DNA from: a virus
Taxonomy: Duplodnaviria > Caudoviricetes
Length of the DNA: 64,000 nucleotides
IMG/VR virus record: IMGVR_UViG_3300010392_001176
Coordinates: 1,815-65,814 of that record
Direction: 5' to 3' (one strand)
Shown here: positions 55,181 to 55,749 of the stretch, piece after piece
Layout of the letters: each line of letters opens with the position of its first letter
Numbering within the stretch: position 1 is the first letter of the stretch
Position numbers and translations under genes: made by a program
The notes under the pieces: model-generated
Database searches by the model: none
What the model was told of the DNA's origin: nothing
The model's input: only the letters and a program-made list of their open reading frames with translations

Positions 55181-55749
55181 CATCGCAATCCATTTCAGAA
55201 CAAAACATGACAATACTCGGCGGCAAATCAAGGCATATCCCGCCCGTCCAGAACGGCTCTCGTCGCCAAAACAAAACAGTACAGGGCATTACTCGACGAC
55301 ACAACAAACCAACCCGCCCCGCATCATTTCACTACGCAGCATAACATTACTCGTCGTCATGCCATCACATAGCATTTCGGTACAGATCACATCTCGACGG
55401 CACTACACTCCGCACCAGCACATCACTCTTCTCGTCGCCACAACACTTCATCGCAGTTCTCGAAGTCAAAACGAAACGGCCCACCACACCCCACTCCGCG
55501 AAGGCAACTCACCCCGATCCGTAACATCACACCTCACCTCATTCCGCGAAGTCAGCTCATCACGCGACACCTCTACGCGGCACACACCACTTCTCGACGG
55601 CAGGGCAACCCACCACACACCATATCATCCCACCACTCGAAGGCAAAACGTTCCACCACGCGGCACGGCAAATCTCGAAGTCAGGACGCTTCACAACTAT
55701 CCACGGCATGTCTCGTCGCCAGCTCCGAACAGCTCACGGCACTCCATTT
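55181..55749 (-). ncRNA. Pentamer-coded guide array (14 blocks, 93 NNN-YG units, 13 octamer delimiters) paired with the RAMP gene
   Basis: Plus strand: all 93 pentamers begin with C (72 CA, 15 CG, 3 CC, 3 CT); delimiters C(T/G)CGN(A/C)GN; abuts RAMP stop codon. Expression as RNA is inferred. Confidence 0.85.

Follow-up and report, generated by a model that had tools for sequence, protein, structure and literature searches.

The stretch of DNA analyzed here (64,000 nt; hereafter the window) covers positions 1,815 to 65,814 of the virus record IMGVR_UViG_3300010392_001176. Two adjoining features of its minus strand concern us: a vipr-like gene encoding a 207-aa protein, P0001 (55751–56374), and a candidate guide array (55181–55749) that begins one base past the stop codon of this gene. 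The array parses into 14 blocks of 4–10 pentamers, that is, units of (NNNYG)4–10, and 13 eight-base delimiters. Each block length is a multiple of 5 (35, 35, 25, 50, 35, 30, 20, 30, 40, 40, 35, 30, 30 and 30 nt for blocks 1 to 14). The pentamers read C[A>G]NNN on the plus strand and NNN[T>C]G on the gene strand. In the latter orientation, position 5 was G in 93/93 pentamers, position 4 was T in 72, C in 15, G in 3 and A in 3 (T or C in 87/93), and positions 1–3 were variable.

The delimiters are octamers of the form C[T/G]CG..G. on the plus strand (gene-strand forms NCGNCGAG, NCTTCGAG and NCTTCGCG), and they were the only elements that recurred within the array. In plus-strand numbering, the first seven lie at 55216–23, 55259–66, 55292–99, 55350–57, 55393–400, 55431–38 and 55459–66, and the last six at 55497–504, 55545–52, 55593–600, 55636–43, 55674–81 and 55712–19. 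The region was distinctive within the 65,814-base record: 12 of the 24 plus-strand runs of at least four C[A/G]NNN pentamers fell within 55181–55749, and the longest run elsewhere was 6 units. Tandem Repeats Finder did not report the array, because it is not a simple repeat. Scans of the region for promoters and terminators gave results at chance level, and the window contained nothing that Rfam or a tRNA scan recognized, the CRISPR repeats of Rfam included. A 150-aa open frame that overlaps the array (55359–55811) belonged to no Pfam or PHROG family. The 13 runs listed as holders of the sequence were all DNA metagenomes from marine sediment, subsurface and similar habitats.

A guide system of such a kind is already known. 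VIPR systems, composed of the protein Vipr and its vrRNAs, were described in 2026 preprints, with Escherichia phage SUSP1 and a Pseudomonas fulva prophage as the type II references (10.64898/2026.04.26.720920, 10.64898/2026.04.26.720927, 10.64898/2026.10.15.759431). According to these preprints, Vipr is a lone Cas7-like protein and the vrRNAs are made of pentamers, with three target nucleotides per protomer and wobble-aligned targets on either strand that include integrase and vipr genes.

P0001 resembled such a protein in its predicted structure, that of a lone, small RAMP (Cas7-like) protein with an RRM core, a glycine-rich loop and a thumb. The AF2 model had a pLDDT of 89.1 and a pTM of 0.79. 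Foldseek returned 139 PDB matches at E ≤ 0.001, the best being type VII Cas7 and type III Csm3 (probability 1.0, TM ~0.5), and the best matches in BFVD included a viral ‘Cas system-associated RAMP superfamily protein’ (TM 0.67–0.71). The C-terminal glycine-rich motif lies in the HGYGGERGMGEGRY stretch, where H187, G188, G191, R193, G198 and Y200 were invariant among 30 sequences and six further positions were at least 90% conserved. Sequence similarity gave little: P0001 had no match in Pfam or PHROG, and none in a sequence search of the PDB (entries to April 2026, no solved Vipr among them). Its 305 homologues were all unnamed and without Pfam assignment. An hhalign comparison of A1 with the SUSP1 Vipr (ALH47069.1) was colinear over 127 columns and was not significant (probability 0.67, E 0.086); with low confidence, it set GER opposite the DWR of SUSP1. 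No match was obtained when the DNA of 54400–56400 and P0001 were compared with 50,697 phage records, and a search of 185,579 species genomes yielded 1 locus only.

Integrase and excisionase-like genes lie near the array, the integrase gene at a distance of 1.3 kb, and the other neighbors are a cupin gene and unknowns. Pfam and PHROGs revealed no cas1, cas2 or other cas gene among the ten reading frames of 53221–59427; the setting is a viral record, 65,814 bases long, with neither a CRISPR array nor a cas operon. An accessory vap gene was not recognized, as 0/11 neighboring reading frames recurred in 120 related loci. A family of ~85 aa that stands beside vipr in 27/121 loci of the distant branch was absent from the window (tblastn, best E 0.5).

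Decoded guides and their matches

Deletion of the two fixed bases from each pentamer gives 14 strings. If a pentamer stands for three consecutive target bases, then the string without its fixed bases should be colinear with the target. The strings that we computed from the coordinates agreed by eye, letter for letter, with those listed in an initial annotation of this DNA, confirming its observation of the array and the decoded strings. That annotation had also interpreted the strings as natural target sequences, and our sequence searches supported the interpretation: blocks 13, 1 and 10 each matched real genes above shuffles (18/18, 20/21, and 15/16 at codon positions 1–2, respectively), in search sets that were picked from the hypotheses of the annotation and represent one phylum only.

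Guide 13 (55682–55711; 6 pentamers) matched the gene for tRNA-Sec (selC). The match was 18/18 in 6/35 tRNA-Sec loci and 17/18 in at least six more, and shuffles reached at most 14–15. The site is the anticodon arm (tRNA positions 31–48), to which the guide RNA is antisense. The 18/18 match was found again in a contig of 231,584 nt (G108 contig C1), where guide 13 was the sole window guide above shuffles. No tRNA-Sec fragment was detected in the phage itself (best 13 nt, E 0.068).

Guide 1 (55181–55215; 7 pentamers), the last in the array, matched a conserved element ~55–145 nt upstream of 16S rRNA genes. Its agreement was 20/21 in 3/32 rrn loci, with 11 matches above the shuffle maximum of 17; it was 19/21 in locus L157, and at least 17/21 upstream of 16S in 18/26 oriented loci. 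The guide RNA is antisense to the upstream arm of the 16S leader. A complementary copy of the element downstream of 16S was matched less well; this downstream arm (19/21, compared with 18 for shuffles) gave the sole match among 23S, tmRNA and RNase P loci of five genomes (77 kb). Guide 10 (55553–55592; 8 pentamers) matched box II (HDLRHT) of a tyrosine integrase in genome G001 (L215), with 15/16 identities at codon positions 1–2 (shuffles 14) and 20/24 in full (shuffles 18). This match is antisense, and the third variable base falls on the wobble position.

The initial annotation had recognized a fourth motif, in block 9 (55505–55544; 8 pentamers), and here the result was mixed. Thirteen nucleotides of the decoded string were identical to the 16S 3′ tail in 26/30 loci, an identity that requires the third variable bases, but 14 nt were identical in 0/30, and the gene targeted was not found. 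Because the identity never extends to 14 nt, and because the whole guide scored 16/24 in rrn loci, below shuffles, the 16S 3′ end was ruled out as the target of block 9. In the guide sense the string looks like a strong Shine-Dalgarno site with an ATG after it, a reading that the 13-nt identity fits.

The other guides were without a significant target. Guide 3 (55267–55291; 5 pentamers) had an 11/15 match in L157, at a distance of 11 nt from the site of block 1, which alone is at chance level, and guide 7 (55439–55458; 4 pentamers) was too short for a meaningful search. No target appeared in the sets searched for guides 2 (55224–55258; 7 pentamers), 4 (55300–55349; 10), 5 (55358–55392; 7), 6 (55401–55430; 6), 8 (55467–55496; 6), 11 (55601–55635; 7), 12 (55644–55673; 6) and 14 (55720–55749; 6), the last being the first unit after the vipr stop codon. 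Overall, 11/14 blocks had no target in related loci, in the tRNA-Sec, rrn, integrase and 23S/tmRNA/RNase P sets, or in G108 contig C1. Against 840 kb of related VIPR loci, none of the 14 window guides rose above shuffles under the full rule or a 2-of-3 rule.

We compared decoding rules on a 471-kb set composed of the tRNA-Sec loci, the rrn loci and one 231-kb contig. With no bases skipped, 2/14 guides clearly exceeded all 40 shuffles of triplet order (20/21 vs 17; 18/18 vs 15). The alternatives, namely NNN plus one base, NNN plus two, all five letters, the first two variable bases without a skip, and two shifted registers, gave 0/14. Under two 2-of-3 subsets of the NNN rule, block 13 alone beat its shuffles. 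The period-3 decoding yielded the matches of 18/18, 20/21 and 15/16, whereas periods 4 and 5 yielded none.

As the initial annotation had noted, the guides do not match their own genome in full: the longest exact matches in the phage were 8–11 nt, the level expected by chance for 131 kb. No shared PAM-like motif was seen beside 6 distinct target sites, a number too small for a conclusion. The annotation had further argued from the presence of both orientations that the targets are double-stranded DNA. Within the window, this argument is carried by block 9 alone; it is better grounded in the guide-target pairs of related loci, 2 sense and 2 antisense, and in the VIPR preprints.

Related loci and the third variable base

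The combination of protein and array grammar was shared by 88/120 related loci. Related arrays comprised 840 units from 121 sources, 89 of which had at least three units; 831 units were on the vipr strand and 0 on the other, with 706 downstream and 125 upstream of vipr. Strains differed by whole units. One contig of run X3 skips 38 nt and 48 nt, each equal to one guide plus one delimiter: unit 12 and unit 10, respectively, are missing with their delimiters, unit 11 is kept, and unit 14 is swapped for 110 other letters.

Some guides of these relatives had recognizable targets in one another’s loci. A 10-pentamer guide shared by L020 and L105 matched the G-loop codons of five other vipr genes at 20/20 of positions 1–2, and three guides of L102 matched L020 at 14/14, 15/16 and 18/20 of these positions. 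Every such pair kept to the codon frame of its target and placed the third base at the wobble position, and both orientations occurred. In bulk, however, the guides were not distinguishable from controls. The mismatch distribution of 457 unique family guides against 840 kb of related loci (zero-skip) equaled those of shuffled and reversed controls, and a search of 466 kb of host loci with 583 guides (periods 3, 4 and 5) likewise agreed with the controls; only single outliers stood out in either search.

These matches bear on the question of how the third variable base is read. In non-coding targets it matched in 13/13 cases (6/6 for block 13, 7/7 for block 1), and the mismatches of block 1 fell only on bases 1 and 2. 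In coding targets, where it sits on the codon wobble position, it matched in 26/43: 2–6 of 10 for the L020/L105 guide across the five vipr genes, 4/7, 4/8 and 7/10 for the L102 guides, and 5/8 for block 10. The third base was G in 45% of family units. In 12 near-identical guide pairs it had undergone 10 changes, vs 4 and 3 for the first two bases (~2.5–3x). The G content, the faster change and the 26/43 coding matches suggest that the third base may be weakly read or unread.

The third base depended on the first two bases of the same pentamer (chi-square 178, p 9e-18) and on those of the next pentamer (p 1e-6), in a codon-like manner, with few ATA and TTA for example. Stop codons, tested against order-shuffles, were depleted in the antisense wobble-aligned frame (z −3.2) but also in a frame that was not predicted (z −3.8). 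When only the third base was shuffled, in-frame stops showed no depletion (z +0.72), and a test of TA context was not significant (p 0.15).

The strongest competing explanation is that the array belongs to the same kind of system and follows the published code, GGY/NN, in which two bases are read and one is skipped (10.64898/2026.04.26.720920, 10.64898/2026.04.26.720927, 10.64898/2026.10.15.759431). The third base would then be tolerated opposite a flipped-out, unread target base. This is a serious possibility, although we lean against it. The published code omits every third target base in wobble alignment, which is where coding mismatches pile up here: the L020/L105 guide is perfect at positions 1–2 and poor at the third, the third-base counts for L102 and block 10 are little better, and this base takes 10/17 of the variable-position substitutions in near-identical pairs. 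Its richness in G and the missing effect of third-base shuffling on in-frame stops agree with such a code. On the other hand, an unread base would not be expected to match throughout two non-coding targets while the mismatches of block 1 spare it, or to depend so strongly, and in a codon-like way, on its neighbors. In addition, the block 9 identity with the 16S tail needs third bases, and block 1 was separated from its shuffles by the full rule and not by the 2-of-3 rule. Judged from these comparisons of sequence, matching is less strict at the third variable base than at the two before it.

Proposed mode of action

We concluded that the locus is probably an RNA-guided system of the VIPR type, though a divergent one, carried by a temperate marine-sediment phage. 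Reasoning from the published Vipr structures, we expect the array to share a transcript with the vipr gene and to be cleaved at or close to the 8-nt delimiters. One protomer would then occupy each pentamer, holding the fixed YG (mostly UG) and presenting the three variable bases. In the natural matches, each pentamer corresponds to three consecutive target bases, so that the string freed of its fixed bases runs colinear with the target; the first two variable bases are matched strictly, and the third fully in conserved non-coding targets and less often at coding wobble positions. At least three guides appear to be aimed at identifiable genes, namely the tRNA-Sec anticodon arm, the 16S leader/processing element of rrn, and catalytic box II of a tyrosine integrase. 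The function, as shown for type II VIPR, may be binding of double-stranded DNA and blocking of transcription or of a site. Some of this blocking would fall on host stable-RNA genes or on att sites of rival elements, and some on the integrase of a rival.

It is also conceivable, though we consider it less likely than not, that the matched sequences belong to rival mobile elements (a selC att site; a boxA/nut-type phage site) and that the array serves purely in warfare between elements. The tRNA anticodon arm is a common integration core, and this arm is what guide 13 covers. In G001 contig C17 an integrase gene lies ~180 nt from tRNA-Sec, and block 10 itself aims at an integrase. The natural targets in the VIPR preprints, moreover, are satellites, prophages and other VIPR loci. 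Against this, in the sets searched both non-coding sequences were located only in chromosomal tRNA-Sec genes and rrn operons, and a site within an intact tRNA gene or rrn leader means that the host chromosome would be bound too.

Action on RNA, with the guides serving as antisense to the pre-16S leader, tRNA-Sec, the 16S 3′ tail and integrase mRNA, seems improbable to us. Three guide RNAs are indeed antisense to such sequences (unit 13 to the tRNA, unit 1 to the upstream arm of the 16S leader, and unit 10 to the coding strand of the integrase), block 9 begins with 13 decoded nucleotides that complement the 16S 3′ tail, and the structure preprint describes a Vipr-vrRNA able to pair with single-stranded RNA. 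But 2/4 sites among relatives are sense and could not pair with mRNA, block 9 matches 16S over 13/24 nt only, and four assigned orientations are too few to speak of a bias. In the preprints, the systems are reported to bind DNA and to silence from either strand, and the filaments that they form on RNA to be incomplete. That the tract is no guide array at all is very improbable. It would then be DNA or RNA to which protein binds at a regular spacing (TRAP-like), a part of an attP site, for which the integrase gene nearby could speak, or the overlapping 150-aa frame. A mere binding tract, however, would not be expected to match unrelated conserved genes exactly, at 18/18 and 20/21, the frame has no family and a 5-nt period cannot be coding, and the integrase is not conserved beside the array in 120 related loci.

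Comparison with known systems

The locus resembles VIPR in that a phage carries a single Cas7-like protein of ~20 kDa beside a non-coding array with a 5-nt period, fixed and variable positions, and three target nucleotides per pentamer. Coding targets are wobble-aligned on either strand, there are no self-targets, and the catalytic core of an integrase/recombinase as well as other vipr genes are targeted. The differences are equally clear. Here the two fixed bases are YG (mostly UG) and follow three variable bases, instead of the published GGY plus NN, and the guides have 4–10 pentamers (20–50 nt) compared with 9–16 in the published systems. The third base mirrors non-coding targets, and hence the readout looks contiguous, unlike the published two-plus-skip. 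The units are parted by 8-nt delimiters only; the ~40-nt structured, invariant 3′ tail and the pseudoknot of the published type II kind are absent, as is a per-unit promoter like that of SUSP1. No vap gene was recognized, and the similarity to SUSP1 Vipr was not significant. Lastly, two guides match host stable-RNA genes, a class of target that word searches did not find in the main texts of two of the VIPR preprints.

Repeats that depart from GGY/NN have also been reported. The Methods of one preprint mention NNNGG, YNNNG and NNNNG, and the legend of its fig. S18 mentions staggered arrays (10.64898/2026.04.26.720920); WGT/NN, TGH/NN and similar repeats appear in another (10.64898/2026.10.21.760802). 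The array described here shares with these the 5-nt period, the lack of long tails, a nearby protein of Vipr-like fold, and fixed bases that are fewer or of another kind. The combination of NNNYG with the NCGNCGAG delimiter is not spelled out in the parts of these sources that list such repeats, and would fall under ‘NNNNG’; in the main text, no targeting rule is stated for repeats with three variable bases. Class 1 CRISPR systems, in which Cas7, Csm3 or Cmr4 filaments form on crRNA, have in common with this locus the protein fold, one protomer per RNA step and a periodic interruption of the duplex, but their step is 6 nt with 5 read, as opposed to 5 nt with 3 read. Nor does the locus contain a direct-repeat/spacer array (~24–40 nt), cas1/cas2 or an effector operon, as in CRISPR-Cas.

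What appears to be new is the contiguous readout of three bases, compared with two-plus-skip, and that at least two guides seem to be aimed at host genes. We tentatively suggest a fuller reading, one that may well prove too bold: that the Vipr of this clade reads three consecutive target bases per protomer, as a triplet code with a soft third position, whereby a discontinuous guide would specify a continuous target, and that its guides strike box II of a rival integrase together with the host rrn leader and selC. In effect, the phage would shut off its host by means of guide RNAs, or control sites of integration. Should the third base really be read, the readout would be denser and contiguous, and the clade would be a natural test case for how the pairing step is set by a Cas7-type protomer. 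The exact matches to the tRNA gene and the rrn leader would widen VIPR from conflict among mobile elements to host stable-RNA genes or shared integration sites. The same two matches point to hosts of the sulfate-reducer type (Desulfobacterota) for this uncultured marine-sediment phage.

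Architecture and conservation of the protein and its array

The array at 55181–55749 follows a strict two-level grammar of pentamer blocks and octamer delimiters. On the plus strand, 13 octamers (C[T/G]CG..G.) divide it into 14 blocks, each 20–50 nt long and a multiple of five; on the minus strand each of them consists of successive NNN[T/C]G pentamers, and the delimiters read NCGNCGAG, NCTTCGAG or NCTTCGCG. Position 5 was G in 93/93 pentamers of this strand, 72 had T and 15 had C at position 4, and positions 1–3 were variable. Tandem Repeats Finder did not report the array as a simple repeat, returning only a 7-nt edge duplication, and a scan of the whole 65,814-base record located no comparable array in the remainder. 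A 150-aa open frame running through the array (55359–55811, plus strand) had no family and was rejected as an artefact arising from the periodic, C/A-rich composition. Two direct copies of a 23-nt repeat, 96% identical (54923–54945 and 55155–55177), flank the 209 nt directly after the last guide unit and may mark the edge of a module or a site of recombination; metagenome run X3 carries diverged sequence of equal length in place of 55022–55179.

A 207-aa frame (vipr, 55751–56374) precedes the array on the same strand, its stop codon lying one base from the array start. This protein has no Pfam or PHROG family, and its 305 metagenomic homologues are all unnamed. A structure model from 30 homologues was confident (pLDDT 89.1) and matched 139 PDB structures at E ≤ 0.001 (top probability 1.0, TM ~0.5), the best folds being the Cas7 subunits that form the backbone of CRISPR complexes of type VII and type III. 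Viral-model matches (TM 0.67–0.71) included one annotated RAMP superfamily protein. Comparison with SUSP1 Vipr gave no significant sequence similarity (hhalign E 0.086). Beyond vipr lie a tyrosine integrase gene at a distance of 0.65 kb (57022–58152; PF00589, E 4.5e-18) and an excisionase-like HTH gene (57956–58321), so the phage is probably temperate. The 65.8-kb record also holds giant reading frames of 3699 aa (12456–23555) and 2030 aa (45181–51273).

Relatives' loci (39 viral, one genomic from a Desulfobacteraceae MAG, and 80 of 128 metagenomic) encoded proteins of 33–61% identity. A grammar scan yielded 840 units in 121 sources, with at least 3 units in 89 of them. Across the 120 related loci, 831 units lay on the protein's strand and 0 on the opposite strand, 706 of them downstream and 125 upstream. 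The relatives' pentamer logo was the same as the window's (position 5 G 98.7%; position 4 T 79%, C 18%), and their delimiter also terminates in CGAG. No other frame near the window's array (cupin, integrase, excisionase-like or unassigned) recurred in these 120 loci, which points to the protein together with its array as the conserved module. In a more distant branch, 27 of 121 loci encode a conserved protein of ~85 aa whose gene either separates vipr from the array or directly follows the array (for example L014, 5232–5462; L036, 3505–3756; L080, 2375–2635; plus 24 more); it is not in the window and could be an accessory (vap-like) gene in this clade.

The stretch is present in marine-sediment and subsurface metagenome contigs from DNA runs. 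One run-X3 contig has the vipr gene followed by an array keeping units 13, 11 and 9 (unit 14 being nearest the vipr stop). It is without exactly unit 12 plus delimiter (38 nt) and unit 10 plus delimiter (48 nt), and has 110 other letters where the window has unit 14. These exact absences in a single low-depth contig suggest that guide units are gained and lost whole, the expected behaviour of a guide cassette.

Targets of the decoded guides

The initial annotation had proposed that deleting the two fixed bases of each pentamer gives natural target sequences, and its 14 decoded strings agreed exactly with those obtained by coordinate computation. We compared decoded guides by script with fetched DNA, using shuffled guides as the control; host-side sets were chosen from the annotation's hypotheses within one phylum, that of the MAG with a related locus, where 147/151 sampled genomes had tRNA-Sec genes. 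Block 13, assigned to tRNA-Sec, matched tRNA positions 31–48 at 18/18 in 6 of the 35 loci returned and at 17/18 in at least 6 more (shuffles 14–15). The assignment of block 1 to a 16S leader element was likewise borne out, at 20/21 in 3/32 rrn loci, with 11 matches above the shuffle maximum of 17 and a 19/21 match directly upstream of a partial 16S gene. This element lies ~55–145 nt upstream of 16S (at least 17/21 in 18/26 oriented loci) and has a complementary copy 30–100 nt downstream, the arrangement of the 16S flanking processing stem; the initial annotation's label 'boxA' is plausible. Among 24 integrase loci from five genomes, the best match of block 10 fell exactly on box II (FHDLRHTF), as proposed, of an integrase in the Desulfobacteraceae MAG (codon positions 1–2, 15/16 vs 14 in shuffles; full, 20/24 vs 18). 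Block 9 and the 16S 3' tail agreed over 13 nt in 26/30 loci but never over 14 nt; its identification as the 16S 3' end was rejected, and in guide sense the block therefore reads as a Shine-Dalgarno site plus ATG. For 11 of the 14 window guides there was no target in the sets searched (hypothesis-chosen host loci of one phylum and the related loci).

Alternative decodings were compared on 471 kb with 40 shuffles. Only the rule 'NNN, no skip' separated two guides clearly; one- and two-base skips, all five letters, the first two bases without a skip and two shifted registers gave nothing, and two 2-of-3 rules recovered block 13 alone.

Relatives' guides against relatives' loci showed no overall excess over shuffles, only single clear cases. 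A 10-pentamer guide common to L020 (3995–4044) and L105 (10689–10738) reproduces the codons of the most conserved Vipr motif, the G-loop (HGYAGER...), from vipr genes at five other loci (L019, L024, L027, L117 and L120), a case of VIPR-against-VIPR targeting inside the clade. Its first two variable bases matched 20/20 and its third 2–6/10, codon-aligned with the third base on the wobble position. Three guides of L102 matched L020 at 14/14 (vipr, sense), 15/16 and 18/20 (neighbouring gene, antisense), with the third base on wobble in 3/3.

The published code and the third variable base

The available text of the VIPR preprints (bioRxiv 10.64898/2026.04.26.720920, 10.64898/2026.04.26.720927, 10.64898/2026.10.15.759431) describes Vipr as a lone Cas7-like phage protein with vrRNAs of 9–16 YNNGG pentamers. 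Each pentamer is bound by one protomer, with GGY sequestered and NN presented, and spans three target nucleotides, two paired and one skipped. Targets there lie on either DNA strand, with skip bases at codon wobble positions, and include satellites, prophages, recombinase catalytic cores and other vipr genes. Alternative NNNGG, YNNNG and NNNNG repeats (Methods) and 'staggered' arrays (legend) appear in 10.64898/2026.04.26.720920, whose available text gives them no stated rule, and further non-canonical 5-mers, e.g. TGH/NN, in that of 10.64898/2026.10.21.760802. Our locus fits the VIPR kind but differs from reference VIPR: three variable bases precede YG instead of GGY plus NN, guides have 4–10 pentamers instead of 9–16, units are 8 nt apart whereas SUSP1 tails are ~40 nt, and no vap gene was recognisable among neighbouring frames compared with the related loci.

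That each pentamer corresponds to three colinear target bases is well supported. We interpret the third variable base as soft and placed on wobble, a position that the published code simply skips. In favour of its being read are its 13/13 matches in the two non-coding targets and its codon-like dependence on neighbouring bases (p 9e-18). Against its being read, G occupies it in 45% of units, it matched only 26/43 in coding targets, and it took 10/21 substitutions in 12 near-identical guide pairs, compared with 4 and 3 at the first two positions. Family-wide, in-frame stops were depleted in 638 unique guides relative to order-shuffled ones, in the frame with the third base at codon position 1 (z −3.8).

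Possible roles of the system

The phage may act on its host, through rrn shut-off or selenoprotein control. Alternatively, it may act against rivals using selC and boxA-like sites, a reading kept alive because a tyrosine integrase gene in the Desulfobacteraceae MAG (contig C17, 305–1070; L121/L217) ends ~180 nt from the tRNA-Sec that block 13 matched 18/18; for the same reason an element may sit at selC in this MAG, which also holds the related VIPR locus L040. No attP was located for the phage, whose own genome contains no tRNA-Sec fragment. RNA targeting is less likely, because guides in sense orientation occur among the relatives. The best-supported reading of the locus is a VIPR-type DNA-binding silencer; two of the guides fit host stable-RNA genes and one fits an integrase catalytic box.
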